A DNA stretch of 41,826 bases from Kiloniellales bacterium (GTDB lineage: Bacteria > Pseudomonadota > Alphaproteobacteria > Kiloniellales > J153). Positions 6,227 to 23,436 of the stretch are shown one piece after another. The stretch's first letter is position 1. The number at the start of each line of letters is the position of its first letter. The notes below the pieces were generated by a model that was not told where the DNA came from, searched no databases, and saw nothing but the letters and a program-made list of their open reading frames with translations. A program made the translations under genes and the position numbers. The DNA is taken from positions 1 through 41,826 of the forward strand of contig JAZGBC010000150.1 of NCBI GenBank assembly GCA_036444495.1. The letters run 5' to 3'.

Positions 6227-6232
6227 GATGCG

Positions 6233-7489: not shown

Positions 7490-8193
7490 TGAGTTCTCTC
7501 TATAGGTAAGGCCTTTGTCTTGCCGGCCCGGTAGCGTCGGATCGACCCGCCGGTAGCTGCAGCCTCGGCTGGGCCGGCCGCGCGGCCCCGGACCAGGTCG
7601 ACCGGATCAGCGATCATCTGTCCAAGCGTGGCGGAAGTGGTGCAGCTGAAGACCGCCGCCGGCCGCGTGGCGAACCCCGGTTGCGGCGTGCTGCAGTCGG
7701 GTTGGATAACCATGGCGCGGGTCACGGTGACCGCCACGGCTTCCTCGGGCTTGGCCAGCGTTGTGATGGGCCTGACCGGGACCTCGCTGCGCAAGCCGAG
7801 GCGGGTGATTTCAGTCTCGATCGCGGACAAACGTTCTACCGTCAGGGTGTCGTGATATCCGGTCTTATCGCGCGGCCCGTCGATCTCGATGCGGGCGCCT
7901 TGATGCACGCCGCTCTGCTGAAGAAACTCGAGAAGTTGGTCGAGCTCGCCGGCGGGCAGTTGCGATTCACCCGGCTGGAAACTGACTTGGTGGACAACCG
8001 TGATCTCCTCGACCTGGCTGTCCATGAAAGGCGGCCGCTGGCGCCAGTTCGCATGATCGAAGGTATGGCTGCTGAATGCCTCGATCGGGTTGCTCTGGCC
8101 TTCCGAGACGTGGCAACCGGCGAGCAGGAGCCCAACTCCTGTCAGCAGGATGGAGAGCTTGGCGAAACGAGTCTTGGACTTTGTCTCTGTCAT
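7486..8193 (-). CDS. cpaD: Pilus assembly lipoprotein CpaD
   Basis: ATG at 8193 with a GAGGAGG RBS; lipobox LLAGC; C-terminal C...F.C....LGQMIADP.DL..GR...PA motif; sits between cpaC and cpaE. Confidence 0.8.
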   Translation of the reverse strand: MTETKSKTRFAKLSILLTGVGLLLAGCHVSEGQSNPIEAFSSHTFDHANWRQRPPFMDSQVEEITVVHQVSFQPGESQLPAGELDQLLEFLQQSGVHQGARIEIDGPRDKTGYHDTLTVERLSAIETEITRLGLRSEVPVRPITTLAKPEEAVAVTVTRAMVIQPDCSTPQPGFATRPAAVFSCTTSATLGQMIADPVDLVRGRAAGPAEAAATGGSIRRYRAGKTKALPIERTQ

Positions 8194-8203
8194 CGAGCCC
8201 TCC

Positions 8204-9574: not shown

Positions 9575-10644
9575 TGTTCTTCCGACTTGTTTTCATCCGA
9601 GCTGCTTCCGCTCGCCGTCTGTTCACCGGGCTTCCGCACGTTGGGACCGGCGCCGGTCCCCGATGGCTGGGCGGTGAAGTCGAAGTTGAGCGAATCCATG
9701 CCGCCGAGGAGGCCACCGAGGAGGTTGCCGACCAGGCCCCCGATGCCTGCGCTTCCGACGCCGCCGCCCCGGTCGACCCGCACCGCCCTGACCTGACTTC
9801 CGCGCTGGACCACCACTGTCTGCTTGTTGTCTCGCCCCTGCTTCTTGGGCCCGGCAAGGAGACGGCTGGCCTCGGTATCCCAGGTGTGTGTGGTGCCGCG
9901 GGCCGGGTCGGGCTCGCCCAGGGGCTCGTCCGAGTTGGCCAGTCGCTCGAGCTCTTCCTCGTCCTTCGCCAAGCTGCGCAGCACGAGCGACAGTCTGCCC
10001 AGCTCGGTCACGACGGCCAGCATCTCGGCCTGCTTCGGCGTCACCTCCAGGGTGGCGTTCTTGCCGACTTTGGGTGAGTTCTTCTGGTCATTGATCCGGT
10101 GGTCGATGGCCAGGACGCGCACATTCGTGAGCACGGTTTCACTGGCCCGGCGCGTGCCGCTCGCGCGCTTGATCTTATGGGTCAAGATTATGTCAACCCG
10201 ATCGCCCGGGAAGACCAGACCGGAGATGCCCGAGGTGGCGTTGACCTTGATCGCCATGGCCCGGTAACCCGGCCGCAGCACGGCGGCCAGGAAGCCGCGC
10301 TCACCAGGCTGGATGATGCGGCCGACAGTGATCGGCTCGCCCGCGGTGATGCCCCGGCGCACGACCGAACCGATGAGCTCCTTCTGGTCCTGCTTGCCCT
10401 TGACCATGTACTTGGGATGCAGCTTTTCGTCCGGCCAGGCTTGCCAGGAGATGTGGTTTTCCTTGAGGAAAGTGCCGCTCGGCAGGTTTTTCTTCGCCAC
10501 CAGGACATAGGTCGCCTTGGGCGCCGGCGCCTCGGGAGCCGCGACCTGGACGCGCTGACTGTTGATCCAGCTGCGCGCCACCAGGCCGGTTCCCGCGGTG
10601 ATGAGAACGGCCGCCAGGATAAGGATTATATTTCGCACCGACAT
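9571..10644 (-). CDS. cpaB: Flp pilus assembly protein CpaB/RcpC
   Basis: N-terminal TM helix, SAF domain (VLVAKKNLPSG), PGYRAMAI.V....GISGLVFPGDRVDIILT, VLTNVRVLAID, TLEVTPKQAE.L. Confidence 0.93.
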   Translation of the reverse strand: MSVRNIILILAAVLITAGTGLVARSWINSQRVQVAAPEAPAPKATYVLVAKKNLPSGTFLKENHISWQAWPDEKLHPKYMVKGKQDQKELIGSVVRRGITAGEPITVGRIIQPGERGFLAAVLRPGYRAMAIKVNATSGISGLVFPGDRVDIILTHKIKRASGTRRASETVLTNVRVLAIDHRINDQKNSPKVGKNATLEVTPKQAEMLAVVTELGRLSLVLRSLAKDEEELERLANSDEPLGEPDPARGTTHTWDTEASRLLAGPKKQGRDNKQTVVVQRGSQVRAVRVDRGGGVGSAGIGGLVGNLLGGLLGGMDSLNFDFTAQPSGTGAGPNVRKPGEQTASGSSSDENKSEEQ

Positions 10645-10648
10645 AGCT

Positions 10649-11155
10649 TCAGTTTAACCTTAACAACGTAAACGCCACGTAAAGCCCGCCCACACCGATG
10701 GCGGCGCCATAGGGCATGGGCTGGCTGCCGAAATCCGGGTCGCTCCCGACCTGAAAGATCATGCTCGGGACCGGCGCCCTGGAGATCCGGTGATGGAGCC
10801 AGAGAAAGGCCACGATCACGCCGCCGGCCAGGGTCGTCAGAACGGTGTAGGGGAGGACCATGTCCGGACCGGCCCAAAGCGCGGCCGCGGCAAAGAGCTT
10901 GGCGTCACCCCCGCCACAGATGCGAAAGGAAAAGAGCAGAAAGCCCAGGGCCAACAGGCCGGTGGCGATGCTGAAGGACATGAGCCAGGCCACCGGCTCC
11001 GGCGCCGAGAGGACGTAGGCCGGATAGAGAAGGCCAATGGCCAGGCACAGCCGGTTCGGCACCGTGAAGGACAGGATGTCGCTCACGGACGCGGAAAAGA
11101 GCAATACCGCGAATGAAAGAATCGCTATGCCCGAGACGATCGCGGAGGCATCCAT
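10649..11155 (-). CDS. cpaA: Prepilin peptidase CpaA/TadV (A24 family)
   Basis: A.VSDI.SF.VPN, GGGDAKL.AA, MPYGAAI; start may be ATG 11155 or GTG 11170. Confidence 0.92.
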   Translation of the reverse strand: MDASAIVSGIAILSFAVLLFSASVSDILSFTVPNRLCLAIGLLYPAYVLSAPEPVAWLMSFSIATGLLALGFLLFSFRICGGGDAKLFAAAALWAGPDMVLPYTVLTTLAGGVIVAFLWLHHRISRAPVPSMIFQVGSDPDFGSQPMPYGAAIGVGGLYVAFTLLRLN

Positions 11156-11177
11156 CGGTTCCAATCGCACTGACTAG

Positions 11178-11220
11178 AAAAATAGGGGCCGGAGGCGAAA
11201 TGCACCCCGGCCCCTTTTTT
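11178..11220. terminator. Rho-independent terminator (possibly bidirectional) between flp and cpaA
   Basis: AAAAAT-AGGGGCCGG-N14-CCGGCCCCT-TTTTT; on the minus strand the stem is followed by ATTTTT. Confidence 0.8.
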
Positions 11221-11280
11221 CAGGTTTATTGGAGACGGCTCCCTAGAAAAGGGGCTCATCCCATTATTGTTCTTTCGGGT

Positions 11281-11469
11281 TTAGCTGCCGGAGGCCGCAA
11301 CCGCGTTGGTCAGCTCGTTAGCCACCGTCCCGAACAGGGTCTTCAGCGAGTTACCCATGGCGGTCAGAGCGCTAATAGCGGCGACCGACACGAGCGCGGC
11401 GATCAAGCCATACTCGATGGCGGTCGCGCCCGACTCGTCGCTGCAGAAATTCTCAAAACGCTTCAACAT
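11281..11469 (-). CDS. flp: Flp family type IVc major pilin
   Basis: DESG|ATAIEYGLIAALVSVAAI Flp motif; AAGGAG RBS upstream of ATG 11469. Confidence 0.96.
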   Translation of the reverse strand: MLKRFENFCSDESGATAIEYGLIAALVSVAAISALTAMGNSLKTLFGTVANELTNAVAASGS

Positions 11470-11528
11470 GAACGTTCTCCTTGTGTACAGCGCATCATCA
11501 TCAGATACCATTATTTAAAGGAAATACC

Positions 11529-11543
11529 TTAATAAAAAGTAAA
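11529..11543. promoter_or_regulatory. CtrA-like site upstream of flp (one mismatch)
   Basis: TTAA-taaaaag-TAAA versus consensus TTAA-N7-TTAA; AT-rich context, so a chance match is possible. Confidence 0.4.
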
Positions 11544-11770
11544 AGAACAACAGAAAGACAATCGCTTCGATAAGTATTCAGACTGTATTTGCGTCGTATT
11601 TTATTTGTATTTGCTTTGAGATAGGAAAGATAAGTCTAAATTATTATTTACTCAGCTAGCTCTTGGGTGAGCTCGGATATCTTGCCCCAATCCCTGAGGA
11701 AGACTCGTATAACTAACTAATTTTAAAGATAAATCTTTACTTGCACGGACGGCAGACCGGCGCGGCCCGT

Positions 11771-12910
11771 TTAAGCCGCCGTAAAATCCGCACCCGGTTG
11801 GGTCGTTCCTACAGCGGGCGCGGCCCGCCGGCTGGCGGCCAGGGCGCGGCCCACGGCCCACCAGATGAGCCAAGTGGCCAGGATCGCCACGTAGCCGTCG
11901 ATGGCGTAATGCCAGCCCAGGTGGACCGAGCCGACCAGGAGCAGGACGAGGAACAAGCAGCTGGCGATCCTCAAGGCCCGGTGCAGGGGCCAAGCCAGTA
12001 GGACCAGCAGGAAGCCCATGGCGATGTGCAGGCTGGGCATGGCCGAGATGCCGGTGCCGATGCCCAGCCGGCCGTTCTCGTACTGTTCGAGCAGGTGGGC
12101 CTGGATAAAGGCCGAAGGCAGATAGGTATCCGCGGCCACCGAGTCCAGATAGGCCATCAGCGGCGCGAAGGGGTTGGGGTCGCCGGCGAAATAGCCGTAG
12201 TAGACCGGGCCCGCCGAGGACAGGACGGTGGCCAGGCCGTTGGCCAGCAGGATCCAGCAGAGCAGCGTGGTGAGCAGGACCTGGAGGCGCCGCGGGTCGA
12301 GCGTGAAGGTCTGCCAGAACAGCAGGAACAACACCACTGCGTACCAGGGCAAGGAGTAGGCGTGCGATATGAGCGTGGTCACGGTTGGCGACCCTAGGAG
12401 GGGCTGCAGCAGCTCCCAGGGGTGATAGCCGCCGTGGAGCACCCGGTCGATCTCGGCCAGCGTCGGATCCCAGCTGAAGGGCGCGATGAGCGGGATCATG
12501 CGTTTGAGCGAGGTCACCGCCGAGTGGACGAGCGGCAGCAGGAAAAAAGCGGGCAGAGCGCTCATGAGCCGGCGGGAGGTCAGGACTTGGCTTCTCAGGT
12601 CGTCCCAGACGAAGCGCAGCGGTCGGCTCGGCCGGTTCTTGGCGATAAGCCAGATGGCGCGTCCCAGAATCCAAGCAACGGCGAAGAACAGGTAGAGGAA
12701 CGTCTGGAACCCGCTATAGAGCGACAGGGTCACGCTCTGGCCGTGCCATCGCCCGATGGTGAAGGCCAGCAGCAGATAGCTCACCGCCAGGGCGATGAAC
12801 CAGCGTTGTTCGTGCAGGACGGCCAGGAACTCGGCGGCGGATCGCCAGGCTCCGCCCCGCGCTTGGGCCGCGCGTGTCGTATCGGGCAGGCTGGCTTGTG
12901 CTCCGGCCAT
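11771..12910 (-). CDS. PAP2 superfamily membrane protein (PAP2_3 / Aur1 inositol-phosphorylceramide-synthase-like)
   Basis: Multiple TM helices; WD..LA..D..LHGG..PW, SAGP.YY, ISAMPSLH (C2 motif), VHLGWHYAIDG (C3 motif); start ATG 12910 or GTG 12931. Confidence 0.85.
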   Translation of the reverse strand: MAGAQASLPDTTRAAQARGGAWRSAAEFLAVLHEQRWFIALAVSYLLLAFTIGRWHGQSVTLSLYSGFQTFLYLFFAVAWILGRAIWLIAKNRPSRPLRFVWDDLRSQVLTSRRLMSALPAFFLLPLVHSAVTSLKRMIPLIAPFSWDPTLAEIDRVLHGGYHPWELLQPLLGSPTVTTLISHAYSLPWYAVVLFLLFWQTFTLDPRRLQVLLTTLLCWILLANGLATVLSSAGPVYYGYFAGDPNPFAPLMAYLDSVAADTYLPSAFIQAHLLEQYENGRLGIGTGISAMPSLHIAMGFLLVLLAWPLHRALRIASCLFLVLLLVGSVHLGWHYAIDGYVAILATWLIWWAVGRALAASRRAAPAVGTTQPGADFTAA

Positions 12911-13060
12911 CTCTTCGCTCCCCTGCGGCACAGGGTTGTCCGCGCGCGGCCGCCGCCTTTGGCCGTGGGACCAGAATTAGTCAGGCCCGGTTTTCAAATC
13001 GTTAATGGCGCTTCGATTGGAGAGCGCGCGGCCCGGGATGGGACCGGCATGAAGAGCCGT

Positions 13061-13534
13061 CTAGTTGATCACCATGGTGGAGCTGCGCCCGAACTGGATG
13101 GGATCGATCGGCAGGAACCCGGTCATGAGAAACTCGTAGGGATAGCCCACCCGTACCGTCACGGTACCGCCTTCGACGTTGCTCGGGGCCCAGGTGACGT
13201 TGACGGTCAATTGCTTGCTGTCCAGCCCCGGCGCCCGGTTCTGGACGTAGGACTTCACGTCCGACTCGGTGGCGACCGTGGGCTTGCCCTGGCCGCGGAT
13301 GGCCGCGTAACGCGCGCCCTCGGCGGCGGCGTGCTCGATGGTGGAGTTGATCCACATGGCCCGCCCGAAATCCATCACGCCGAACATGATCAGAAAGAAG
13401 GCCGGGGCGATGAGGGCGAATTCAACGGCGGCCTGGCCGCTCCGGTCCCTCAGGAGTCGCAGTCCGCGGCTCAGGCGTTCGAGCATTCGCTGCAATCCTT
13501 TTCCATATCCCATCGGGCCCGTGGCTTTCCGCAC
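13061..13534 (-). CDS. TadE-like minor pilin
   Basis: RDRSG|QAAVEFALIAP...MFGVMDFGR...HAAAEGARYA; exact start uncertain. Confidence 0.9.
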   Translation of the reverse strand: MRKATGPMGYGKGLQRMLERLSRGLRLLRDRSGQAAVEFALIAPAFFLIMFGVMDFGRAMWINSTIEHAAAEGARYAAIRGQGKPTVATESDVKSYVQNRAPGLDSKQLTVNVTWAPSNVEGGTVTVRVGYPYEFLMTGFLPIDPIQFGRSSTMVIN

Positions 13535-13535
13535 C

Positions 13536-14045
13536 TCACCGTACCCGCATGGTGTTGGTCGAGGTGACCGGGCGCGGCGAGGTAATGCCCGTGTACTGGA
13601 ACAGGAGGGGCACGTTGTTTGTCACGGTGACTTCCACGTACATGATGGGAAAGATCGAATCGTCGCTGCCTCCGGTACACAGGCCCGTGCAGTCGACCGC
13701 GCCGCTATCGCTGCATACGCAGTACTGCCGGGCGCTGACATCGAGCGCGTTCTGATCGTCGCTGGCATCGTTGCGCGCCGCCTGTTCCATTCCCGCGGTG
13801 TCGGCGGCCACGGAGGAATTCTGCGCCCCGTACTGGGTACCGGCGCGCGCGGCGTTGGCCACGGTGATCTTCTGCAGCCCGAGATTGCCGAAATCGAAGG
13901 CGCCGAGTCCTAGGGATACCAGGATGGGCAGCACGAAGGCGAATTCGATCGCCACGTTGCCGCCCCGGACCCGGCGAAATGCCTCGATCGCCCGAAGGGG
14001 CGCGGCGGCGATGCGGGCCGACTTGCGAATTGTTTCTTTGAGCAT
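13536..14045 (-). CDS. TadE/TadF-like minor pilin
   Basis: RGG|NVAIEFAFVLPIL...GAFDFG...ANAARAGTQYG; Cys-rich loop YCVC...C...C; GGAGG RBS before ATG 14045. Confidence 0.9.
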   Translation of the reverse strand: MLKETIRKSARIAAAPLRAIEAFRRVRGGNVAIEFAFVLPILVSLGLGAFDFGNLGLQKITVANAARAGTQYGAQNSSVAADTAGMEQAARNDASDDQNALDVSARQYCVCSDSGAVDCTGLCTGGSDDSIFPIMYVEVTVTNNVPLLFQYTGITSPRPVTSTNTMRVR

Positions 14046-14076
14046 CGTTTGAGTCCCTCCGCACAAGGATCCGCGA

Positions 14077-15378
14077 TTACTCGATAAGCGTGGCTTCGAT
14101 CAGCAGCGGGTTCTGCAGGATCGGGGTGTCCTCGAAGCCGCCGATGTTCGTGTTGCCGACGAAAGTGACCGTGTCGGCGATGATCAGCGAGGTCGAGGTG
14201 TTGAGCTCCGACCCCCCCGAGAATCTGACGTCCTGGTTGGGGAAGTAGAGGATGCCCTCCAGGTTCATGGTCGAACCGCCCGAGAAGCTATGGGTTATGT
14301 TGCCCACCGTGTTGCGGTCGTGATAGAAAAGGATGCCGGGCATGTCGGCGTTGCCGCCGTCGGCCGTCAGGGTCACGGTGCCGCCGGTGATGTTGATGTT
14401 GTCCGCCGTGCCCGAGTTCTCGGTCAGATAGAAGTTGACGTCCGTTCCGGTCACCGTGGATGCGCCGCCGATGCTGAGACCGGCGCCGTCCAGGATGTAG
14501 AGGCCCGGGTCGAAGTCCAGGGTTCCGCCGTTGACGGTGATTTTGCCGCAGTAGTGACCCGGCGTGAGCGTCAGGGTATCGCCGGCGCCGAGACTGTAGT
14601 TGGTGTTGTCGGTGCAGCCGCCCGGCACATAGCTGCTCGGCGGGCCGAGCGATCCCAGCGGGTCGCTCACCGGCGTCACGCCGGTGACCGGCGTGGAGCC
14701 GAAGCAGTCGCCGGAAGCGCCGCCCACCACCCTGACCTCGGTCGCGTTCAGGCAGGAGGTCGAACCGTTCTCGACCACGCCGCTGGAATTGGACGAGTTG
14801 GAGAGCACGCCGCAGCCCAGGTTCACTTCGGAGGTACCGGAGACCTTGATGGCGCCCGAATCGGTCGAATTGAGCGACCAGACGCAGGTGTCGTTGAGGG
14901 CCGCCATGGCGACCGCGCGCGCCGAGATGGTGGGCGTGCCGCTGAAGACCAGCTGGCTCAGGAAGCTCTGGCTGGTCCGCGTGATGATCACCTCTACCGA
15001 ATCGGTCGAATCTTTGTTCGGACCCGAGGTGGGTGGATAGTAGATTGTGATGGTGTCGCCGTTGGCGTCGGTGAAGCCGTTGACGCCCGCATCAGCGGTG
15101 GCGGAGGCCAGGACCTCGCTCTCCACGCTGTTGGAGCGCAGTATCTGCAAGGCGCCGGAAATGGCGGCGGAATCGGCGGCGCTCTGCGCCATGCGCGCCT
15201 GCGAATACCAGATGCCCACATCGACCGACAGCCCGGCGAAGCCCAACAGCATGGGGGCCGCGATCGCGGTATAGACAAAGATGGTCCCGCGGCGGTCCCG
15301 CCAAAATCGGTGTAGATTGCGTCGTAGGATGCGATTGATCGCCTTCATCACCTGCACGCCTCTTTTCGCCTCTTCCAT
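14077..15378 (-). CDS. TadG-related pilin/adhesin (N-terminal Tad domain, Gly/Ser/Thr/Asn-rich C-terminal beta domain)
   Basis: RDRRG|TI..YTAI..P.LLGFAGLSVDVG..Y......Q.AADSAA..GA; C-terminal LTPGHYCG, FDPGLYILDG, GILF..DR, GILYFPNQ.V.FSG repeats; start 15378 or 15348. Confidence 0.87.
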   Translation of the reverse strand: MEEAKRGVQVMKAINRILRRNLHRFWRDRRGTIFVYTAIAAPMLLGFAGLSVDVGIWYSQARMAQSAADSAAISGALQILRSNSVESEVLASATADAGVNGFTDANGDTITIYYPPTSGPNKDSTDSVEVIITRTSQSFLSQLVFSGTPTISARAVAMAALNDTCVWSLNSTDSGAIKVSGTSEVNLGCGVLSNSSNSSGVVENGSTSCLNATEVRVVGGASGDCFGSTPVTGVTPVSDPLGSLGPPSSYVPGGCTDNTNYSLGAGDTLTLTPGHYCGKITVNGGTLDFDPGLYILDGAGLSIGGASTVTGTDVNFYLTENSGTADNINITGGTVTLTADGGNADMPGILFYHDRNTVGNITHSFSGGSTMNLEGILYFPNQDVRFSGGSELNTSTSLIIADTVTFVGNTNIGGFEDTPILQNPLLIEATLIE

Positions 15379-15491
15379 CGACTCCAGACCCCGTCCGGTC
15401 GATGCCGGATTTCATGGCAGGTGGCTGCCATTCACCCGCGATCGCCCGAGACACAACGGTCTTCCACGCACATGAATTATGCGAAAGCCGG

Positions 15492-15507
15492 GTTAAGGAC
15501 TCGTTTA
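15492..15507 (-). promoter_or_regulatory. CtrA-like binding site upstream of tadG, containing a GANTC site
   Basis: Minus strand reads TAAA-cgagtcc-TTAAC (one mismatch to TTAA-N7-TTAAC), followed 10 nt later by CATAAT; GACTC at 15498-15502. Confidence 0.6.
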
Positions 15508-15657
15508 GGATTGAAGTGGATTTAAGATTTATTCTTGCGGCTGGAATAATATTTCTAGTAATAACACCTATTGTTTACTTGCGGTTGGCGGGGCGGCTGT
15601 GGCGGTTCCGATTCCCGCGCAGGACGCCGGCCATGGCTATCAAAGCCTTAACGGGCT

Positions 15658-17628
15658 ATGCCCATACTCCCGCCCTCGAAACGCTGGCGCCCGGCCTCGA
15701 AACAGATACGGACCGAACCCTTGGCGTCCTCCGATAGTTCAGACCTAAGCACTCTTCGTCACAGCGGCGCACAATGGCGCCAGCTGGACGACGGCCAGGT
15801 GTTCGCGGCCGTGGCCATGGCGTTGTTGCTGGTGATCGTCATCCAGGTGGGCATGGTCCTGCGGGGCGACGCCTCGGTGCTCGATGGTGTACTGGCCGAC
15901 CCCGACGCCTACTTGCGCTTGGCCCGAATCGACCGTCTGGCGGAAACCGGCGCCTGGTTCGATTCGGTAGAGTCCCGGATCAACCCGCCCGGCGGCTTCG
16001 CGCTGCATTGGACCCGGCCGCTCGATGCCCTGATTCTCGGAGGGGCCTACCTGGGCAGCCCGTTCCTAGGCTTTGACAAGGCCTTGTTCTGGTCCGGCGC
16101 CGTCGTCAGCCCCCTGTTGCAGTTGCTCTCCCTGATCGCGCTCGTCTGGGCTAGCCGGCCGGTCCTGCCGCGCCTTTGCCGCTGCCTTCTGGCCTTCTTC
16201 TATGTGGCTCAGCCCGGCATCCTCGCCATGTTCATTATGGGCCGCGCCGATCACCACGGCCTGCTTATCCTGTGCTGTATCCTTCTGCTCGGCCTGACCA
16301 TCCGGCTGCTTCTGAATCCGGACGACCTGGGCAACGCCGTCTGGGCCGGGCTCGTTGCCGCCTTCGCGATTTGGATCAATGTGGAGGCGCTGCTCTTCGT
16401 CGTCGTGACCATAGCCGCGCTCGGACTGTTCTGGCTGCTGGTCGAGGCCCGGCTGGCGCGCGCCTGCCTGGTATATGCCGCGGCGATTTTGGCCAGTCTG
16501 GGCGCGGCCCTGCTGGCCGAACGAGGCGTTGCCGGCCTGGGTGACTATGAGATCGACCGGCTATCCATCGCCCACATCGTTCTGTTCGCCGCCAATTTCA
16601 TCTACTGGGCCGCGATGGACCTGGTGCAGCGGCGGGGCCGGGGATCATCGGCCCTGGGGCCGCGGGCCGTGTGGGCCGGGGCCGGCATTGCGGTGACCCT
16701 GGGCTTGTTGTGGTGGATGCACCCGGCCTTCTTCGCCGATCCCATGGCTCTGGGCGACGAGCTTTATCTGACCAAGCACATGGCCAATATCGAGGAGCTT
16801 CAGCCCCTGTTCGCAGCCCCCGGAGAGGGCGGGAGCTGGCCCAAGGCGCTGGCCAGGCCGGTCCTGTGGCTCGGTATCGCGCTGCCGGCGGTTCCCTGGT
16901 TGCTCCACCTGATGCACCGATCGCCGGGGCCGGAGCGCCGGGTCTGGGTCTTCTTCGCGCTCGGCCTGTTGCTGTTCACGCCGTTCGGCGTCCTGCATTT
17001 ACGCTGGGTCATGTATCCGGAGCTTTTTCTCGTGATTCCCTACGCGGCCCTGGCCGGGGCGTTGGTGGCCAGGCTTGCCGACGCCTTGAGCGAAAACGCG
17101 CTGAGCATCGTCCGGCCTCTTGTGATCGCGGGGTTGGCGATCTGGTTCTACGTCCCGACGTTTGCCACCCAGGCCGGCCCGCCGGTAGGCGCGTCGGAGC
17201 AAAGCGCCGTGAGCTGTCCGCTTCGCACCTTGGCCCCGGTCCTGGACGATCCGGCCGGCCTGGGCGCCGCGCCCAAGCGCGTCCTCGCCTTTATCGATTT
17301 CGGTCCCGAGCTGATCTACCGCACGAAGCATTCCGTCTTCGCTATCCCGAACCACCGGCGCCAGCCGGGCTTTACGCTGGGTTACGGGATCATGACCGCG
17401 ACCGACTTCGGCCGGGCGCGGGACGATCTGCTGCTGGCCGGCATCGATTTGATACTGATCTGTCCGGGGTCGGTCGAAGGCTGGTTCTATTCGACCGAGG
17501 AACCGGGCCGCACCCTGTACCAGACCCTGGCGGCCGATGAGCCGCCCGCCTTCCTCGAACCGATCGCCCTGCCCGGCGTCCTGGCCGAGCACTTTCGGCT
17601 GTTCAGCCTGCGCAAAAGCGCGGAGTGA
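15658..17628 (+). CDS. Polytopic GT-C fold membrane protein, STT3/AglB/PglB oligosaccharyltransferase-like
   Basis: About a dozen hydrophobic segments plus a soluble C-terminal domain; DPDAYLRL, LHWTRPLD, GRADHH, NIEELQPL and FIDFGPEL..RT.HSV.A.PNHR occur in the order of the STT3 motifs; true start may be downstream (about 15799-15818). Confidence 0.65.
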   Translation: MPILPPSKRWRPASKQIRTEPLASSDSSDLSTLRHSGAQWRQLDDGQVFAAVAMALLLVIVIQVGMVLRGDASVLDGVLADPDAYLRLARIDRLAETGAWFDSVESRINPPGGFALHWTRPLDALILGGAYLGSPFLGFDKALFWSGAVVSPLLQLLSLIALVWASRPVLPRLCRCLLAFFYVAQPGILAMFIMGRADHHGLLILCCILLLGLTIRLLLNPDDLGNAVWAGLVAAFAIWINVEALLFVVVTIAALGLFWLLVEARLARACLVYAAAILASLGAALLAERGVAGLGDYEIDRLSIAHIVLFAANFIYWAAMDLVQRRGRGSSALGPRAVWAGAGIAVTLGLLWWMHPAFFADPMALGDELYLTKHMANIEELQPLFAAPGEGGSWPKALARPVLWLGIALPAVPWLLHLMHRSPGPERRVWVFFALGLLLFTPFGVLHLRWVMYPELFLVIPYAALAGALVARLADALSENALSIVRPLVIAGLAIWFYVPTFATQAGPPVGASEQSAVSCPLRTLAPVLDDPAGLGAAPKRVLAFIDFGPELIYRTKHSVFAIPNHRRQPGFTLGYGIMTATDFGRARDDLLLAGIDLILICPGSVEGWFYSTEEPGRTLYQTLAADEPPAFLEPIALPGVLAEHFRLFSLRKSAE

Positions 17629-17673
17629 CGAGTCGATCCGATGAAGAAGGGCCACCCGGCCGGGCGGGTGGCG

Positions 17674-18417
17674 TCAACCGATCCGGCTATTGGACAGGAA
17701 GATCGTCCAATTGAAAATCCCGGGTAGGGTAGGGGCCGGTTCGGGCGGTTGCGGCGCGCGTGCGGGTTGCGCCGCCGTCGCTGCCGAGGGGACCTTGAGC
17801 CGCAGACAGCTACGCAGCTTTTGACTTTCGGGCTCCAGCCCAACGTCCCCGACGAGATCTTCCAGGGGACGGGTCAGGATGTCGGGCAGCTTCTGGAACG
17901 GTTCCGCCGGGGCCGAAAGGGGCGCGGCCGGGGAGGGAGCGGCCGCTTGCGGCGCACCGTTCTGATGGGGCACGGCGCGTTCGAGCAGGTCCAGGATGGC
18001 CACGAGGACCGGTTTGATATCCTCCGTCACCTCGTCGCGCAGCGATTTCTCGAAGCTATTCTGGCTGGGGCCGGCGCCGGGAATGCCGGCGCGTTCGCTG
18101 AGCCGCTCCACCTGGCTCTGCAGTTGCTGACGGAGGACCTGTTCGCGCTGCTGGATTTGCAGGAAGGTCTCGATGCGATCCAGCAAGCGCGCGTTCTCGG
18201 CCGACAGCCGCGCGATCTCGCCCGACTGAACGGTAATGATGCGGTCCAGCGCCTCGTAGGAAACGTCCGGCAAAGCGGCCGCCGGTTGCTCGCTGCCGGC
18301 GGCTGATGCGCCCTGTACCTCGACTGGCGAGGAGGGCTGCGCCGGGCCGCTCTCAGGCTCGGCCGCTGCGTCCGCCGCCGTGGCGGCGCTCGAGCTGTTG
18401 TTCGAGGACTTGTTCAC
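17674..18417 (-). CDS. Hypothetical coiled-coil protein
   Basis: Low-complexity N-terminus; heptad segment QSGEIARLSAENARLLDRIE...QQLQSQVERL; immediately downstream of the TPR-SPOR gene. Confidence 0.65.
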   Translation of the reverse strand: MNKSSNNSSSAATAADAAAEPESGPAQPSSPVEVQGASAAGSEQPAAALPDVSYEALDRIITVQSGEIARLSAENARLLDRIETFLQIQQREQVLRQQLQSQVERLSERAGIPGAGPSQNSFEKSLRDEVTEDIKPVLVAILDLLERAVPHQNGAPQAAAPSPAAPLSAPAEPFQKLPDILTRPLEDLVGDVGLEPESQKLRSCLRLKVPSAATAAQPARAPQPPEPAPTLPGIFNWTIFLSNSRIG

Positions 18418-18439
18418 GGCGAAGAGTTCCGTCTCTTTC

Positions 18440-19930
18440 CTAACCGGCAGAGGAACCGCCCGCTTCCGGCTGTTCCTTGACGATCAGGCAATCCATGCCG
18501 CGTTCCTTGAGCGCCATACACAGGAGGTCGGCCGCGTCCTTGGTCTGGAGACCCGTGCGCAGGCGATAAAATATCCCCTTGTCGGCGCCGAGGTCGGCGC
18601 GCCGTACTTCCGGCTCGATCTCGGCCAGCAGGTCGGGCGCCAGGCGGCGCAGTTCTATCCAGCCTTTCCGCGCCCGCTCCTCGCTGCGGTAGGAGGCGAA
18701 CTGAACGGCGTAGACAACCGCCGGCACCCACTGGGTCATCTCCGGCTGGCTGGACGGCAGCGCCGCAACCCGGGATTCGCGCTGCGAGATGGCGTTATCG
18801 GCTGCCGTGGACGTGCCGCCATTCACGTCGACGGAGAGGTAGTCGCCGAACAGGGCGACGGACCGGTCGGCATCCGTCACGCCCGTGGTCAAGGCGGCGG
18901 TCTGCGTCTGGGTGGGTGAGGCCGGTTCATTGCTGGAGCCCGAATCGGTTTGGTTTTCGCCCCAATCCGGATAGGACCGGCCGGCCGTGGCGTCGGTATC
19001 GAACATGTCATCGCTGGCGTCGGGCTTGCGGGCGTACTGTTCACGCGTCGCCGGCGAGAGAGCGATCGGGGCCGAGGCCGGTTCCTTGAGCGCCGTGGAG
19101 TCGACCGGGCCGGAAACCGCTGCAAGATTCCCGACGGGCATATCGTCGGCCGTGGCGGCCGTCTGGGCCCCGTCCGGCCCGGGTGCGCCGCCGAGCATTT
19201 CGAGGGAGGCGAGGGCCACATCCGACAGGTGGGTGCTGTACAGGCCCTGGGCGAGATCGAGGTTCTGGCGGCTGGTATCGTCGGCCGCCGGATTGGCGGC
19301 GACTTCCTCGAGGATCGTGATGCCTTCCACGTAGCGGCCGCTTAATGCCAGGGACAGGCCCAGGTTGCTGCGCAGCGAGAGATCGCGCGGCGATGCCTTG
19401 AGCCCGGCCCCGAAGGCCTCCTGGGCGGCGGCGTGTGCGCCCAGCAGTCCATTCGCGACCCCGAGGGCATTGTAGATGCGCGGATCTTCGGGCCTGTGCT
19501 TTCGCGCGGTCTCGAGATGGGTCAACGCCAAGTCGTACTGCTCGAGCGAGACATAGGCTTTGCCCAGCCGGTAGTGTGCCTCGGTGTTCTCGGGCGAGGT
19601 ATCCAGAATACGCTTATACGCGATGGTCGCCTGGCCGATCTCGCCCATCTGGGTCAGGATCTCGGCCAGCTTGAACAGGGGCTCGGGGTTCGTGGGGTCG
19701 AGTTGGTGTGCGCGATCGCAAAGCCCGATCGCGGTCGCCAGGTCTCCCCTGCTGTAGAGCCTATCGCAGTATTGAATAAGCTGCCCCGTGCCGCCATCGT
19801 ACTTCTTGTCGATGGCGCCATAGGCCGTCGGAGCCGGGTTGGACAGACCGGCGCAGCTCGCCGTGACGAGCATTGCGCCCAAGGCCGTGACAATCTGTGC
19901 CGGCCGGTTCCTGAGGTGCGTCTTTTTCAT
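18440..19930 (-). CDS. TPR-repeat (TadD-like) lipoprotein with C-terminal SPOR domain
   Basis: Lipobox LVTASC; TPRs (AHYRLGKAY, IYNALGVA, LRSNLGLSLALSG, SRQNL.LA.GL); SPOR AVQFASYRSEERA..GW..L....RADLG..G.FYRLR.G....A..LC..LK.RG.DC; probable start ATG 19930. Confidence 0.88.
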   Translation of the reverse strand: MKKTHLRNRPAQIVTALGAMLVTASCAGLSNPAPTAYGAIDKKYDGGTGQLIQYCDRLYSRGDLATAIGLCDRAHQLDPTNPEPLFKLAEILTQMGEIGQATIAYKRILDTSPENTEAHYRLGKAYVSLEQYDLALTHLETARKHRPEDPRIYNALGVANGLLGAHAAAQEAFGAGLKASPRDLSLRSNLGLSLALSGRYVEGITILEEVAANPAADDTSRQNLDLAQGLYSTHLSDVALASLEMLGGAPGPDGAQTAATADDMPVGNLAAVSGPVDSTALKEPASAPIALSPATREQYARKPDASDDMFDTDATAGRSYPDWGENQTDSGSSNEPASPTQTQTAALTTGVTDADRSVALFGDYLSVDVNGGTSTAADNAISQRESRVAALPSSQPEMTQWVPAVVYAVQFASYRSEERARKGWIELRRLAPDLLAEIEPEVRRADLGADKGIFYRLRTGLQTKDAADLLCMALKERGMDCLIVKEQPEAGGSSAG

Positions 19931-20059
19931 CGTCTTCTGCCCTTTGCACACACGACTTTGTTATTCGTTCGCCGGCCCCTTTTTGTTTCTTCCCATTCTT
20001 CCTGATTGCGGGTTTATCGGGGCCGGGGTAGTTGTGGATTCACATCCCTTCTTTCTCCA

Positions 20060-20767
20060 TCAGCCCTCTCGGCGGACGTGACAGAGAACGTGATCGATCT
20101 TGCTCTGGTCCTCGCCGAACGGCAGCGCGACACCGTGATAGCGGATCGCCCTGCGCTTGCCGGGAAAGGCTTCGCCGTCTTGAACAGGTACCCCGTCGCT
20201 GACAACCTCCTGGGCCAGGGAAAGAAGCCACTGGAGCATCAAGGGAGACAGCTCCACCCCATCGGCTTCCTCGCCGCTGGGCGGCCAGGAGGGCTCCGGG
20301 TTGCTCAAGCCCCTAAAGGTCTGTTCCGGCTGCAGAGCGTCGCTGCCGGCGCGGCAGCGCAATAGTATGGAGTCCGGCCAATTGGCCTCGATTTCCCGGG
20401 TTTCGAGGTCGGATATTGTTGGAATGGGACGGCTTCCGCGCAGCCGGGTCCAGTAATCCACCAGTTGCGCCTGAGTGTGCCGCACGGCCGCTCGTGTATC
20501 CGCCGGGCGGTTTTCGGCATCACCCGCCCTATTCCCTTGGCCATCCACGGCGGCAGCCGGCGCCCGTCTGGCCTTCCGACCAGCCTGTCTTGCCTTGGGC
20601 GGCGTGCGGCGGCGAATCTGCACCGAGGCGAGGGATTCCACCGGGGCGCTGCCGGACCCTGGTTGCAAAGCGTCACCGTCCGCTTCCGGCTCCGCATCGA
20701 AGGGGTATTCGGGATCCCGCGGATTCACCCGTGATGGCTCCATCTCAGTCATTGCTTGCGTCGTCAT
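20060..20767 (-). CDS. PAS_5 (DUF1457)-like protein with disordered N-terminus
   Basis: L..YW..LRG.R..P..SDL.......WP..ILL and Y.GV.LPF..D...IDHVL resemble PAS_5 motifs. Confidence 0.6.
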   Translation of the reverse strand: MTTQAMTEMEPSRVNPRDPEYPFDAEPEADGDALQPGSGSAPVESLASVQIRRRTPPKARQAGRKARRAPAAAVDGQGNRAGDAENRPADTRAAVRHTQAQLVDYWTRLRGSRPIPTISDLETREIEANWPDSILLRCRAGSDALQPEQTFRGLSNPEPSWPPSGEEADGVELSPLMLQWLLSLAQEVVSDGVPVQDGEAFPGKRRAIRYHGVALPFGEDQSKIDHVLCHVRREG

Positions 20768-21209
20768 TCGTAGCCCGGCCTCCGCCCTGGTAGACCGGGG
20801 GGATCGCCTTCAGGACCTCTGGTGCATGCCGCTCGAGATATTCGTCGAGCGCCTGGGTCAAGAGGCTCTGCTGGGTGCGCTCCCCCTGCATGGCCGCCAG
20901 CTTCAACCTCTGGTGACGGGTCAGGTCCAGACGCAGGGAAACGCGTACGCGCTTGCGCTTGCCGCCGCCTCCAGCCTGCGCCCGCTGTCCGGAGCTTGTT
21001 TGATCGGGTCTGGCCGCGCCGGGCCAGGCGAGGGGTTTCTTGGCCAGTCGCGGCTCGCTTTGCGCCGTTGCCGCTGGCTTGTTCGGCGCCGGCTGGGCCG
21101 GGGCCTCGTCGCCCGGCAGGATGCCGTGCCGGTGCGGCGCCGGAACGGCCGGCTGGGCCGATCCCTTGCGGAAAAGCAGGTCGCTGGTCAGGCGTGCAAG
21201 CGGCTTCAT
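20745..21209 (-). CDS. Small protein with N-terminal LT..LL.RKG.A.PA motif and C-terminal ribbon-helix-helix domain
   Basis: ATG 21209 lies just after the parA stop; C-terminus RVRVSLRLD..RHQRLKLAA....RTQQSLLTQALDEYL has the RHH pattern (alternating beta strand, helix, helix). The longer ORF from 21989 overlaps parA and was rejected. Confidence 0.75.
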   Translation of the reverse strand: MKPLARLTSDLLFRKGSAQPAVPAPHRHGILPGDEAPAQPAPNKPAATAQSEPRLAKKPLAWPGAARPDQTSSGQRAQAGGGGKRKRVRVSLRLDLTRHQRLKLAAMQGERTQQSLLTQALDEYLERHAPEVLKAIPPVYQGGGRATNDDASND

Positions 21210-21214
21210 GGCAC

Positions 21215-21940
21215 CTATGCGGTCTCTTTTCTGGGCGGCCCGGAGTACTGGGACAGGGCCGCCGTCTGCCGCGCCTGGAGGCGCGCGCCGGCCCGGATCT
21301 GCTGCCCCTGTGGCCGGGTGCAGCGATCGAGCCGGTCGGCGAGGTAGTCCCAGAGCTGGATCATTTCCTCGGTCGAGCGCTTGGCGCCCGAGATCTCCAT
21401 GACGGTCCGCCCGTCGATCATGCTGGCGGCGTATTCCGTCCGGTGATGGACGGTGACCGGCGCCACGGTCCCGTGCTGCGACAGGGCGATGGCGGCCTCG
21501 CCGGTGATGCGCGCCCGCGGCGTCGCGCCGTTGATGACGAAAACCAGGGGCTTGCTCACCTTCTCGCAGAGATCCACGGTGGCGCCCGCGGCCCTCAGAT
21601 CGTGCGGGCTCGGCCGGGTCGGGATGACCACCAGGTCGCAGACCTTGATGACCTGCTGGATGGTCGCGGTGATTGCCGGCGGCGTATCGAATATCAGGAG
21701 CTCGATGCCGAGATCGCGCATCTTCTGCAGGTCTTCCTGCAGGCGGGAAATGAAGGTCTGCGCGAAGACCGGGGTCTCGGCCCGGCGGGCGTTCCACCAG
21801 TCCGACAGGCTGCCTTGGGGGTCCGCGTCGATGACCGCGACCGGGCCCGCCCCGGCCCGTTCGGCCTGAACCGCCATATGTCCCGCCAGGGTCGTCTTGC
21901 CCGACCCGCCTTTCTGGGACGAAAAGGCCATCACCCGCAT
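21215..21940 (-). CDS. Orphan ParA/MinD family ATPase (short, no N-terminal HTH)
   Basis: MRVMAFSSQKGGSGKTT (deviant Walker A), IDADPQGSL..WW, FDTPP, VIPTRPSPHDL; GAGGAG RBS before ATG 21940. Confidence 0.93.
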   Translation of the reverse strand: MRVMAFSSQKGGSGKTTLAGHMAVQAERAGAGPVAVIDADPQGSLSDWWNARRAETPVFAQTFISRLQEDLQKMRDLGIELLIFDTPPAITATIQQVIKVCDLVVIPTRPSPHDLRAAGATVDLCEKVSKPLVFVINGATPRARITGEAAIALSQHGTVAPVTVHHRTEYAASMIDGRTVMEISGAKRSTEEMIQLWDYLADRLDRCTRPQGQQIRAGARLQARQTAALSQYSGPPRKETA

Positions 21941-22113
21941 GTGAGTCGCGCTCCTCAATGACGCGGCAGCCGCGTCCGCTAAACCGCACGGGGCGCCGCC
22001 GCGGCCTTTGCTCCGGAGCCCCGGATGCCGCCTGCGGCGCCGACCGTTTTTTTGCCTGTTGCGTGAACTGAATAGATAGTCCTCCACAACACTAGAGAAA
22101 GTAGCCAAGAATA

Positions 22114-22130
22114 GTTAAAACTGAATTAAC
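22114..22130. promoter_or_regulatory. Perfect CtrA box upstream of the parA operon
   Basis: GTTAA-aactgaa-TTAAC matches TTAA-N7-TTAAC on both strands; on the minus strand it is followed 10 nt later by TACTTT (GCTACTTT, -10-like). Confidence 0.8.
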
Positions 22131-22425
22131 GACTAGAAACAGAAAAAGTATTTATCTTGCATTATAGATAACAGATATTATTTAGTAAGACTGTGTAATA
22201 AATCCATAACCCCGAATAATTCTCATTAGTATCGCTCGTCCTTTCTAATTCTCACGGGCAATGCCGGCGTCATCACACCTGAGAATTCAGTCCATGCTCC
22301 ACTGACGCCCCACATTTGCCACGGTCTTCTTTCAGGACTTGTACCGGCGATCGGGCGCCTATCCCGAGCCGGCCGCCGCGCTCCACAGCGCGGATGGAAG
22401 CCGCGGGCCAAACCGCAAAAAAACC

Positions 22426-22462
22426 TGACGTTTCCGGGCAAATTTCCGGCGATCTAATGCAA
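22426..22462 (+). promoter_or_regulatory. Tandem 21-bp-spaced sites resembling GlxA/ArgR-type (GATR) AraC binding sites
   Basis: TGACGT-N6-GCAA at 22426 and CGGCGA-N6-GCAA at 22447; similar to the Pseudomonas ArgR TGTCGC-N8-AA tandem repeat; upstream of an operon ending in a GlxA-type regulator. Confidence 0.5.
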
Positions 22463-22554
22463 GTTTTCCGGTATGTCTGCATTAGCGTGGCGGTCTGGCG
22501 CGCGCGGGCGACTCCGCGAGTCGCGCGCGCAGCGGGGCGTTTCGAGGGCAGGAC

Positions 22555-23436
22555 ATGAACCGAGAGGTGATCGTCACCTGCGCGGTAACGGGCGCGGGCG
22601 ATACGCTGGACAGGCATCCGGCCATACCGGTCACGCCCGAGCAGATCTCGGCCTCGGCGATCGAGGCAGCGGCGGCGGGCGCGGCCGTGGTCCATATTCA
22701 CGTGCGCGACCCGGAGACCGGCCAGCCTAGCCGCAAGACCGAACTCTACGCCGAGGTGGTGGAGCGGCTGCGCGATAGCGGCAGCGACGCGGTCATCAAC
22801 CTGACCGCGGGGATGGGCGGCGACTTCTTCCCCGGCGACGACGATCCGGCGGCCGGCGGCCCGGGGACCGACATGGTGGGCCCCGAAGAGCGCCTGGTGC
22901 ATGTGGAGCAACTGCGCCCCGACATCTGCAGCCTGGATTGCGGCACGCTCAATTTCGGCGACGGCGCCTACATCAGCCCGGCGCCCTACCTGCGCGTCAT
23001 GGCCGAACGCATCAAGGACTGCGGCGTCAAGCCGGAGCTCGAATGCTTCGATCTCGGCCACGTACGCCTGGCCAATCATCTCATCGAGGAGGGCCTGGTG
23101 CTGGCGCCGCCCCTGTTCCAGATTTGCCTGGGCATCCCCTGGGGCGCGCCGGCCGACACCGGCACCATGAAGGCCATGGTGGACGCCCTGCCGGAGGGCG
23201 CCGTCTGGGCCGGCTTCGGCATCTCGGCCATGGAGATGCCCATGGTGGCCCAGGCGATTCTGCTCGGCGGGCATGTGCGCGTCGGACTCGAGGACAATCT
23301 CTATCTCAAGAAGGGCGTCTTTGCCAGCAACGCGCAACTGGTGGAAAAAGCTATTAAAATCATAGAGTTGCTTGGTGCGCGTGCGCTCAGCCCCGGCGAG
23401 GCCCGCGTCAAGTTCGGTCTCAATACCACCGGCTGA
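22555..23436 (+). CDS. Beta-keto acid cleavage enzyme (BKACE/DUF849), probable 3-dehydrocarnitine cleavage enzyme (CdhC-like)
   Basis: [17 protein letters not shown]...[52 protein letters not shown]; carnitine gene context. Confidence 0.92.

Follow-up and report, generated by a model that had tools for sequence, protein, structure and literature searches.

A ParF-like ParA operon behind a predicted CtrA box, next to a tad locus in Kiloniellales, encodes a TadD-type lipoprotein with a SPOR domain

Gene organisation of the operon

The subject of this analysis is a five-gene operon carried by a Kiloniellales bacterium (contig C150, JAZGBC010000150.1, of assembly GCA_036444495.1), for which the whole stretch of 41,826 nucleotides, here called the window, was considered. 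The organism is known from metagenomes alone; its metagenome-assembled genome (MAG) comprises 2.4 Mb, is 81% complete and has MAGs of the Kiloniellaceae as its closest named relatives. Positions 17674 to 21940 of the minus strand contain five co-oriented open reading frames (ORFs) arranged head to tail, which encode, from 5′ to 3′, a small ParF-like ATPase (ParA1), a ParG-like ribbon–helix–helix (RHH) protein, a MopJ-family PAS protein, a TadD-type tetratricopeptide repeat (TPR) lipoprotein with a C-terminal SPOR domain, and a family-specific fifth protein (Table 1). Only 5 nt separate the ParA and RHH genes, the RHH and PAS genes overlap by 23 nt, and the gaps before and after the TPR–SPOR gene are 129 nt and 22 nt, respectively. 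The fifth gene shares the terminator-like hairpin at its 3′ end with a convergent neighbour, and a second, weaker terminator-like match falls within the ParA gene. To judge from the sequence, the five genes are probably one operon read as a single transcript.

The GC content of the operon resembles that of the remainder of the window, and upstream of it lies an AT-rich stretch of about 170 nt in a genome of 65% GC. The ParA leader, of about 150 nt, is moderately structured and parts of it are kept in close relatives; an Rfam scan of positions 11000-23000 returned no family, its one chance-level match (E 0.86) lying outside the operon. A search of sequencing runs for the operon gave no RNA among the 24 rows listed, all of which are tentatively marked as DNA; 19 of these 24 contain the operon stretch or part of it, seven of them at least half of its words, and the other five contain almost nothing of it.

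The original prediction for this DNA, made from the letters alone, had described five co-oriented genes behind a perfect CtrA box. The genes are indeed present, tightly spaced and closed by one hairpin, and the box has been confirmed, with a phylogenetic footprint in relatives and a CtrA equivalog encoded in the genome. Of the domain labels that it had given, ParA, TPR and SPOR hold; RHH and PAS fall below the Pfam cut-offs and are backed by profile and hhalign comparisons, and the coiled coil assigned to the fifth protein is only weakly backed.

Table 1. Features of the operon, its promoter region and the neighbouring tad locus (window positions).
Feature	Position	Strand	Remarks
ParA1, small ParF-like deviant Walker-A ATPase	21215-21940	-	241 aa; Pfam and NCBIfam matches
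ParG-like RHH protein	20745-21209	-	154 aa; profile match to ParG
MopJ-family (PAS_5-like) protein	20060-20767	-	235 aa; hhalign and AlphaFold2 (AF2) model
TadD-type TPR lipoprotein with C-terminal SPOR	18440-19930	-	496 aa; Pfam, AF2 model
Fifth protein, family-specific, no assigned fold	17674-18417	-	247 aa; no Pfam or NCBIfam family
Terminator-like hairpin	17651-17672	-	directly 3′ of the fifth gene; common to the convergent gene ending at 17628
5′ leader, GC-rich	21941-22097	-	folds at -73.1 kcal/mol, z -2.1 against shuffles
Conserved GCTA(A/C)CTT element	22098-22105	-	9 nt downstream of the CtrA-type box; conserved alignment columns
Perfect CtrA-type box, TTAATTCAGTTTTAA	22115-22129	-	TTAA-N7-TTAA; starts 189 nt upstream of the ParA ATG
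Convergent polytopic membrane protein	15658-17628	+	656 aa; between tadG and the operon
tad/cpa locus	2548-15378	-	tadG, tadE/F, PAP2, flp, cpaA, cpaB, cpaC, cpaD, cpaE, cpaF, tadB, tadC (Pfam)
flp pilin	11281-11469	-	ORF in the tad locus
PAP2-superfamily membrane phosphatase	11771-12931	-	between tadE/F and flp; homolog at the same place in genome G027
One-mismatch CtrA-type box	11529-11543		about 60 nt upstream of the flp pilin gene
One-mismatch CtrA-type box	11771		3′ end of the PAP2 ORF
Two one-mismatch CtrA-type boxes, 4 nt apart	15493 and 15511 (span 15493-15525)		divergent tadG/STT3-like promoter

A CtrA-type box upstream of the ParA gene

The box TTAATTCAGTTTTAA is the sole full match to TTAA-N7-TTAA in the 41.8-kb window, for which shuffling gives an expectation of 0.02, with at least one match in 2 of 100 shuffles. 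Among relatives from the same family, a full box stands upstream of the ParA gene in nine of ten loci, at -77 to -210, the tenth having one mismatch, and in all seven loci taken from four other families the box has one mismatch and lies at -171 to -197. A class-level check of nine loci (eight from the class-wide sample described below, plus that of genome G029) found a full box in two, a box with one mismatch in five and none in two, one of these blank loci having yielded just 68 nt. In an alignment of seven ParA upstream regions, the box and the GCTA(A/C)CTT element are the only sharply conserved blocks. The second of these is possibly the -10 region of a promoter whose -35 region overlaps the CtrA box, a reading based on the promoter architecture of Caulobacter.

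A CtrA equivalog is present in the genome (NF045991; score 427 bits, cut-off 350). Full boxes number 32 genome-wide, 31 of which are intergenic by crude gene calls. Behind them stand, among others, genes for a flagellar rod protein, MotA, an MCP, two REC proteins and MraZ, together with an SLT_2 lytic transglycosylase, a cell-wall hydrolase, an M23 peptidase and a histidine kinase, which is the kind of gene set that CtrA controls elsewhere. Because the box is unique in the window and conserved in relatives, and because the genome encodes the CtrA equivalog and carries such boxes at these other targets, CtrA control of the operon is, as a prediction, well supported. If one mismatch is tolerated, five box matches occur in the window against 0.93 expected, including those at the flp pilin gene and the divergent tadG promoter (Table 1), and the tad genes may have their CtrA timing in common with the operon. 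The accessible passages of a paper on the CtrA regulon of Hyphomonas (PMC7200025) hold nothing relevant on ParA, SPOR, pilus or TPR.

Further upstream than the CtrA box, at 22210-22290, the element TGAGAATT occurs three times, two of the copies being direct repeats with 29 nt between them and the third being inverted. These repeats are of 8-9 nt each, their conservation in relatives is not obvious, and they may be an operator or due to chance. A k-mer search across the ParA, flp and tadG promoters brought up no convincing common k-mer.

A TadD-type lipoprotein with a SPOR domain

The fourth protein of the operon starts with a lipobox, LVTAS-C26, the cysteine of which is invariant in 22 sequences, and continues with a TPR domain (residues 48-246), a disordered linker of about 150 aa (256-401) and a SPOR domain (406-486). 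The TPR families of Pfam score far above their cut-offs and SPOR reaches 27.0 bits against a cut-off of 21, over residues 413-492. In the AF2 model, an 11-helix TPR domain is predicted with pLDDT values of 96-98, and the SPOR domain, at about 95, has four strands and two main helices in the order E-H-E-E-H-E.

Several lines of evidence bear on the identity of the TPR part. Of 12 tad loci from relatives, 6 encode a TPR lipoprotein of 268-320 aa immediately behind tadC, and these proteins are 36-48% identical to the TPR part in the window (E 1e-23 to 1e-42). When 41 genomes (40 relatives and the organism's own) were searched with this part, 32 had a match, mostly one strong match each; in its own genome the TadD–SPOR protein is the single homolog of TadD-type lipoproteins, and a Pfam scan of the window found no tadD-like gene in the tad locus. 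The placement is complementary: the organism's own genome, G014 and G035 have the gene in the ParA module and a tad locus without it, whereas G027 has a TadD-like gene at its tad locus and a ParA module without one. In a maximum-likelihood tree of 22 TPR domains the short and long forms are interleaved, and one family, with support of 100/99, holds both. On account of the position after tadC in relatives, the single-copy pattern, the complementary placement and the tree, the protein is best read as a TadD ortholog that has gained, or elsewhere lost, a SPOR domain.

With TadD/CpaO it has in common that it is a single-copy TPR lipoprotein, homologous to the post-tadC gene and associated with a CtrA box. 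It differs in its long disordered linker and SPOR domain, and in being encoded in a ParA operon outside the tad operons, 2.3 kb beyond tadG and not after tadC. Of the TadD-like genes that stand apart, 15 of 16 have a full or one-mismatch CtrA-type box at most 300 nt upstream. Across the loci of TadD-like genes (L079-L098) the box lies mostly 68-130 nt upstream, irrespective of whether the gene is short or SPOR-fused, at tad or alone, and several of these boxes are of the variant form TTAG-N7-TTAA.

As to function, TadD is the pilotin for RcpA in Pseudomonas aeruginosa, as cited in the accessible part of PMC13170226. SPOR, AMIN and LysM domains are described as binders of denuded peptidoglycan in the passages available of PMC5285504, according to which the AMIN domains of PilQ also recruit the type IVa pilus machinery of P. 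aeruginosa to future division sites. Going by the known behaviour of its family, the SPOR domain would be expected to target the TadD–SPOR protein to the septum. The likeness to PilQ (PMC5285504, same passages), that a binder of septal peptidoglycan on an outer-membrane part pre-installs a pilus machine, is pure analogy, and the two cases differ in that the pilus is of type IVa there and of the Tad kind here, the domain is AMIN there and SPOR here, and it sits on the secretin itself there and on a putative pilotin here. A second comparison, by description only, is with the polarity factor PodJ. In Caulobacter, pilus biogenesis requires PodJ, the periplasmic part of which contains TPRs and a domain that binds peptidoglycan. 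The operon likewise combines TPR, peptidoglycan-binding and putative coiled-coil elements, in a setting of polar Tad pili under CtrA, with the differences that its elements are on separate proteins and that its binding domain is SPOR and not PG_binding_1.

We tentatively favour, at somewhat short of even confidence, the reading that the operon is a CtrA-timed module of two arms, the TadD–SPOR arm of which would direct assembly of the Tad secretin to septal peptidoglycan. This envelope arm is its better-founded part.

The fifth protein, which follows the TadD–SPOR gene, has a helical and weakly heptad segment at about residues 55-110, and carries the conserved motif LPxILTRPLEEL as well as F.WT at its C-terminus. 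A crude heptad test placed its best window at residues 64-105 (p 0.07). The protein is largely of low complexity and conserved only within the family, and has no Pfam or NCBIfam family. Its possible relatives in the ESM Atlas, with a best feature score of 0.84 and structural TM scores of 0.37 at most, were rejected as not credible, including a row labelled ‘PopZ’ whose TM score of 0.32 is noise.

The ParA ATPase and its ribbon–helix–helix partner

ParA1 matches the Pfam families AAA_31, CbiA and VirC1, and is small, with no N-terminal helix–turn–helix extension. Its best match in the PDB is ParF of plasmid TP228 (4dzz, E 1e-18), residues 1-189 aligning with residues 1-192 of the 206-aa ParF. 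The best NCBIfam family is ParA_partition (NF041546), against which it scores 161.3 bits and so stays below the equivalog cut-off of 180. Within the deviant Walker A motif, SQKGGSGKTT, residues K10, G11, G12, G14, K15, T16 and T17 are invariant in 18 sequences; the serine varies. The protein is 59-79% identical to the module ParAs of the five families sampled and is far better conserved than its partners, for which identities are 24-46%.

The original prediction had called this ParA an orphan, a label that has to be dropped, as a ParG-like partner is encoded directly downstream in the manner of a type Ib partition pair. The RHH protein begins with the peptide LTSxLLxRKGxAxP, which a disordered linker connects to a predicted ribbon–helix–helix at the C-terminus; the strand–helix–helix pattern of the latter is conserved in an alignment of 13 sequences. 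It scores 22.7 bits against RHH_10, below the cut-off of 27, and a profile of the 13 sequences matched ParG (1p94, E 0.003) and omega (E 0.027) in the PDB. Thus the best PDB matches of ParA1 and of the RHH protein come from one and the same plasmid. R14 and K15 of the peptide and L92 and R93 of the predicted strand are invariant, and S91 is nearly so.

Because the same peptide sits on unrelated ParA partners, which is the best available evidence, LLxRKG is likely to be the handle by which ParA is bound and its ATPase stimulated. McdAB, PpfA–TlpT, PomXYZ and MipZ are comparable in that a ParA-type ATPase has a partner with a stimulating peptide at its N-terminus (a predicted one here) and that the gene neighbourhood hints at the cargo. 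The present system differs in that its partner protein is of the plasmid RHH type and its ParA belongs to a distinct, ParF-like subfamily. A prediction of the complex of ParA, RHH and PAS_5 proteins, in which the PAS_5 protein was scored, gave 0.29 and 0.04 against a mark of 0.32 and speaks neither way.

In common with ParF–ParG of TP228 (4dzz, 1p94, 5u1g), the pair consists of a small ParA that lacks a DNA-binding domain at its N-terminus and, encoded directly behind it, a small RHH-type protein with a flexible, basic N-terminal tail. In contrast to the plasmid pair, the genes here are chromosomal, complete chromosomes included, and conserved across families; they stand behind a CtrA box, with short repeats of 8-9 nt as the only candidates for a centromere or operator in the leader search; they are joined by a third conserved gene, that of the PAS_5 protein; and the RHH protein is twice the length of ParG.

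This kinship raises the question of whether a domesticated type Ib cassette could serve as a transcriptional switch, the RHH protein repressing the operon and perhaps tad, ParA being its co-repressor and the PAS protein its signal input, with no spatial patterning. ParG is also an autorepressor of parFG, and ParF enhances this repression, which speaks for such a switch given that ParF and ParG are the closest solved relatives. The RHH strand keeps the alternating R/S/R side chains of DNA readers, and the AT-rich upstream region offers the three copies of TGAGAATT and TACTT-type elements that are conserved in the upstream alignment; on the other hand, no repeat is convincingly common to the ParA, flp and tadG promoters. 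The conservation of ParA and its invariant ATPase motifs would fit a working motor better than a co-repressor, and a member of this ParA family has as its partner a membrane protein that lacks any DNA-binding domain (see below). We consider a mere switch quite improbable.

When the 4.46-kb operon was compared with 72,556 plasmids in a distant blastn search, only the ParA gene found matches. These lie in 30 records, which cover 8-13% of the query at 64-70% identity, none of them 80% or more. That the nearest DNA matches in this collection are plasmid ParA genes, that ParA_partition is the best NCBIfam family and that one distant locus has a RadC neighbour would be expected if ParA and RHH were a decaying relic of a partition locus, left without present function by an integrated plasmid or integrative and conjugative element. 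This idea is scarcely credible, considering the intact frames, a gene order fixed across at least ten families, the strong conservation of both ParA and the promoter box, a GC content like that of the rest of the window, and a chromosomal setting that includes complete chromosomes.

A MopJ-family PAS protein

The third protein scores 19.2 bits against PAS_5 (PF07310), over profile positions 4-47 only and below the gathering cut-off of 22, and two close homologs (73-80% identity) carry a precomputed match to PF07310. When its alignment was compared by hhalign with canonical PAS_5 proteins from its own genome and from relatives, the probability was 98.9% (E 1e-17, 125 columns). The AF2 model has residues 99-233 mostly at pLDDT >90, with a loop at 156-167 below 50, and forms a five-stranded sheet with flanking helices, for which the top Foldseek matches are PAS/LOV domains at E 3e-3 and weaker. 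Preceding the domain are some 95 disordered residues with a conserved SL.S.QIRRR motif. On these profile comparisons and the model, the third protein is a divergent member of the PAS_5/MopJ family.

MopJ of Caulobacter crescentus (pfam07310) is described in the accessible part of PMC4432633 as a single-domain PAS_5 protein of 165 aa, polar and cell-cycle regulated, which binds DivJ and promotes accumulation of CtrA. The operon protein shares with it the PAS_5-type domain, the alphaproteobacterial origin and the context of cell cycle and CtrA. Unlike MopJ, it has a disordered extension with a basic motif, its Pfam score is below cut-off and its gene is always encoded behind ParA–RHH. Because the genome holds four canonical PAS_5 genes elsewhere, the operon protein is ruled out as the MopJ ortholog.

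Distribution of the module

Among 40 relatives, a search with the PAS protein found it in 10 of 13 genomes of the family, the three without a match being 59-90% complete, and gave strong matches in three other families. The order ParA–RHH–PAS–TPR/SPOR is kept in all ten family loci, and the fifth gene is present in nine, the contig of the tenth ending before it; the synteny survey that had been suggested with the original prediction thus shows joint conservation of the five genes within the family. In a second family, three loci contain genes one to four, and in a third, two loci have ParA–RHH–PAS with a divergent TPR/SPOR gene.

Over an even sample of the class, the PAS protein (E <=1e-12) was detected in 12 of 301 genomes, the organism's own included, and in 9 of 11 foreign loci it lies behind ParA and RHH. 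A word-index protein search returned only 62 relatives, all of them either without a name or ‘hypothetical’. Searches of the literature, with most subscription journals not covered, found no description of the triad of ParA, RHH and PAS_5 genes or of a TadD–SPOR fusion.

Paralogous ParA systems

Two further ParAs of the ParA1 family are encoded in the same genome. On contig C235 (locus L099, 9016-12114), the gene for ParA2, which is 62% identical to ParA1, is convergent with mipZ and directly followed by that of an FtsN-like partner of 430 aa, which has an N-terminal LLARKG, one transmembrane span and a C-terminal SPOR domain (41.6 bits). The trio of ParA2, SPOR partner and MipZ was found in 7 of 14 fetched loci; three more have the SPOR partner with no MipZ in the trio position (no match in two, and about 2 kb upstream in one). 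A ParA system whose client binds septal peptidoglycan may thus be represented by this trio. The handle peptide, in the form LL/LF + A/V/T/S + R/K/N + KG, occurs on downstream ORFs of 10 of the 14 loci.

Other ParA copies adjoin MipZ-like genes, and with these the ParF-like family evidently sits in a neighbourhood of division, septum and polarity genes, as far as gene context can tell. At two loci, L157 (G033:C28) and L156 (G038:C84), a MipZ-like protein and a 238-aa protein, each with an LTxxLL-like N-terminal start, are encoded beside ParA copies, which hints that the handle is portable between clients.

The third ParA of the genome (contig C129, locus L100, 8229-9305) is 45% identical to ParA1 and fused at its C-terminus to a PilZ domain (45 bits). 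With its degenerate Walker A motif (DLPGSGKT), it looks like a ParA linked to cyclic di-GMP and possibly non-catalytic.

A wider reading of these data would be that a new ParF-like family of the Alphaproteobacteria drives diverse clients through LLxRKG and couples the nucleoid to septal peptidoglycan, with the TadD–SPOR protein of the CtrA-timed version in the Kiloniellaceae pre-installing Tad secretins for polar pili independent of PodJ. The clients would then be the RHH protein with the MopJ-like PAS protein, the FtsN-like SPOR protein beside mipZ, and the MipZ-like proteins. We regard this as speculative and, taken whole, unlikely.

The adjacent tad locus and other neighbours

The module adjoins tad in the window, in 6 of 7 assessable family loci and, independently, in G029, which belongs to another family. 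The adjacency to the tad cluster that the original prediction had pointed out is therefore real, with one convergent gene in between. The product of this gene, a polytopic membrane protein of 656 aa, has no Pfam or NCBIfam match; its ESM Atlas feature score to STT3/AglB-like oligosaccharyltransferases is 0.99 and its ten best matches all belong to one clan. It is kept at the same place in three family loci and may be a glycosyltransferase that acts on pilins or on some other protein of the cell surface.

A gene with a T5orf172/MUG113 (GIY-YIG-like) domain, at 250-1071 on the plus strand, lies beyond the opposite end of the tad locus. It falls in the first kilobase of the window, which has 53% GC and may be mobile DNA.

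Is the module tied to Tad pili?

In the two-arm reading that we tentatively favour, the first arm is cytoplasmic, consisting of the ParF-like ParA, the ParG-like RHH protein with its R/K peptide handle and the MopJ-family PAS_5 protein, and the second belongs to the envelope, comprising the outer-membrane lipoprotein of TadD, linker and SPOR, followed by the lineage-specific helical protein. Late in the cell cycle, phosphorylated CtrA would turn on the operon along with the tad genes. The SPOR domain would anchor TadD on denuded glycan strands at the constricting septum, and CpaC secretins, hence Tad machines, would be placed where the new poles form, as with the AMIN domain of PilQ in Pseudomonas. 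ParA and RHH would act on the nucleoid as a type Ib pair like ParF and ParG, patterning or regulating the MopJ-like protein or the locus itself. The analysis shows the gene content, the homologies, the synteny, the conservation of the box and, from position and single-copy pattern, the orthology to TadD. Here we infer, from sequence and analogy, CtrA binding, co-transcription, septal targeting, pilotin function, the contacts of ParA with its partners and the coupling of the arms.

A number of observations weigh against this reading. None of the five genes codes for a protein that would span the membrane and connect the cytoplasmic arm with the periplasmic one, and the tad locus has a ParA/MinD-type protein of its own, CpaE/TadZ. 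In G005, from the same family, there is no tad gene within about 19 kb downstream of the module, and tad, as judged by RcpC, is present in 32 of 41 relatives, many of them without the module; because RcpC is so widespread, co-occurrence of tad and module says little. The relatives are kin, and their counts are not independent. Matches of the TTAA type are more likely to arise by chance where intergenic DNA is AT-rich. The similarity in the TPR part is generic: PDB searches by sequence and by fold ranked designed TPRs, OGT and MamA first, with PilF at ranks 36 and 40 only and no TadD among the top 50-60 matches. Moreover, the accessible part of PMC13170226 reports that CpaO, the TadD ortholog of Caulobacter, is dispensable for pili, does not form part of the machine and is expressed after the other outer-membrane Tad components, and therefore a TadD homolog need not be a pilotin.

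Further points of this kind come from the class at large, where the ParA–RHH–PAS_5 core is found in loci of nine other families, six of which, with flanks examined, are not beside tad, and where short loci of eight other families, in unrelated contexts, have the triad with no detectable TPR/SPOR gene. Because it recurs in this way across the class, mostly away from tad and without the TPR/SPOR gene, the triad is, on its distribution, an old and stable unit, which the TPR/SPOR gene and the fifth gene joined later.

It could follow that the triad is a device of the cell cycle, polarity or division and not specific to pili, for example placing or regulating a MopJ-like factor of the CtrA circuit or acting with the division apparatus, while TadD–SPOR and the fifth gene would only use its CtrA-timed promoter. 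Consistent with this are the persistence of the unit in 9 of 11 class-level loci, in varied contexts other than tad, the ParA2 and FtsN-like TM–SPOR pair beside mipZ (own genome and 7 of 14 loci), and the MipZ-like genes next to other ParAs. In G022, too, the triad adjoins a REC–MipZ fusion and there is a stand-alone TPR–SPOR gene, both claims resting on an unpublished genome. Lone TadD-like genes carry a CtrA-type box of their own, which makes promoter sharing a possible reason for joining the operon. The accessible passages on MopJ (PMC4432633) and on CpaO (PMC13170226) point the same way, in that MopJ acts on the CtrA pathway and CpaO is not required for pili in Caulobacter. However, at least four families have the TPR/SPOR gene next to ParA–RHH, in one of two arrangements (tandem or divergent), and the module lies beside tad in two families, which exceeds what one chance fusion would give. 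We judge a pilus-independent triad to be a serious possibility, if on the whole a rather unlikely one.

The connection to the Tad machine that the original prediction had proposed is therefore upheld in part: it gains from the TPR domain being the only homolog in the genome of the post-tadC lipoproteins, whereas nothing shows that ParA positions Tad, for which the locus has its own CpaE.

Significance

Each part of the operon is of a known kind; what is new is their combination, the SPOR-bearing TadD and the peptide-tagged family of clients. To our knowledge, polar placement of Tad pili is understood only in Caulobacter, where it proceeds via PodJ, CpaE, ZitP and CpaM. If the two-arm reading is true, a SPOR-bearing pilotin would be a simple alternative route to placing Tad pili at the right pole, and TadD/CpaO, the role of which in Caulobacter was recently questioned, would have a function. 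The triad and the ParA2/SPOR/MipZ paralog are uncharacterised, conserved ParA systems in the neighbourhood of CtrA, division and polarity, which would widen the catalogue of ParA/MinD cargoes and tie a partition pair of the plasmid type to chromosomal cell-cycle control.

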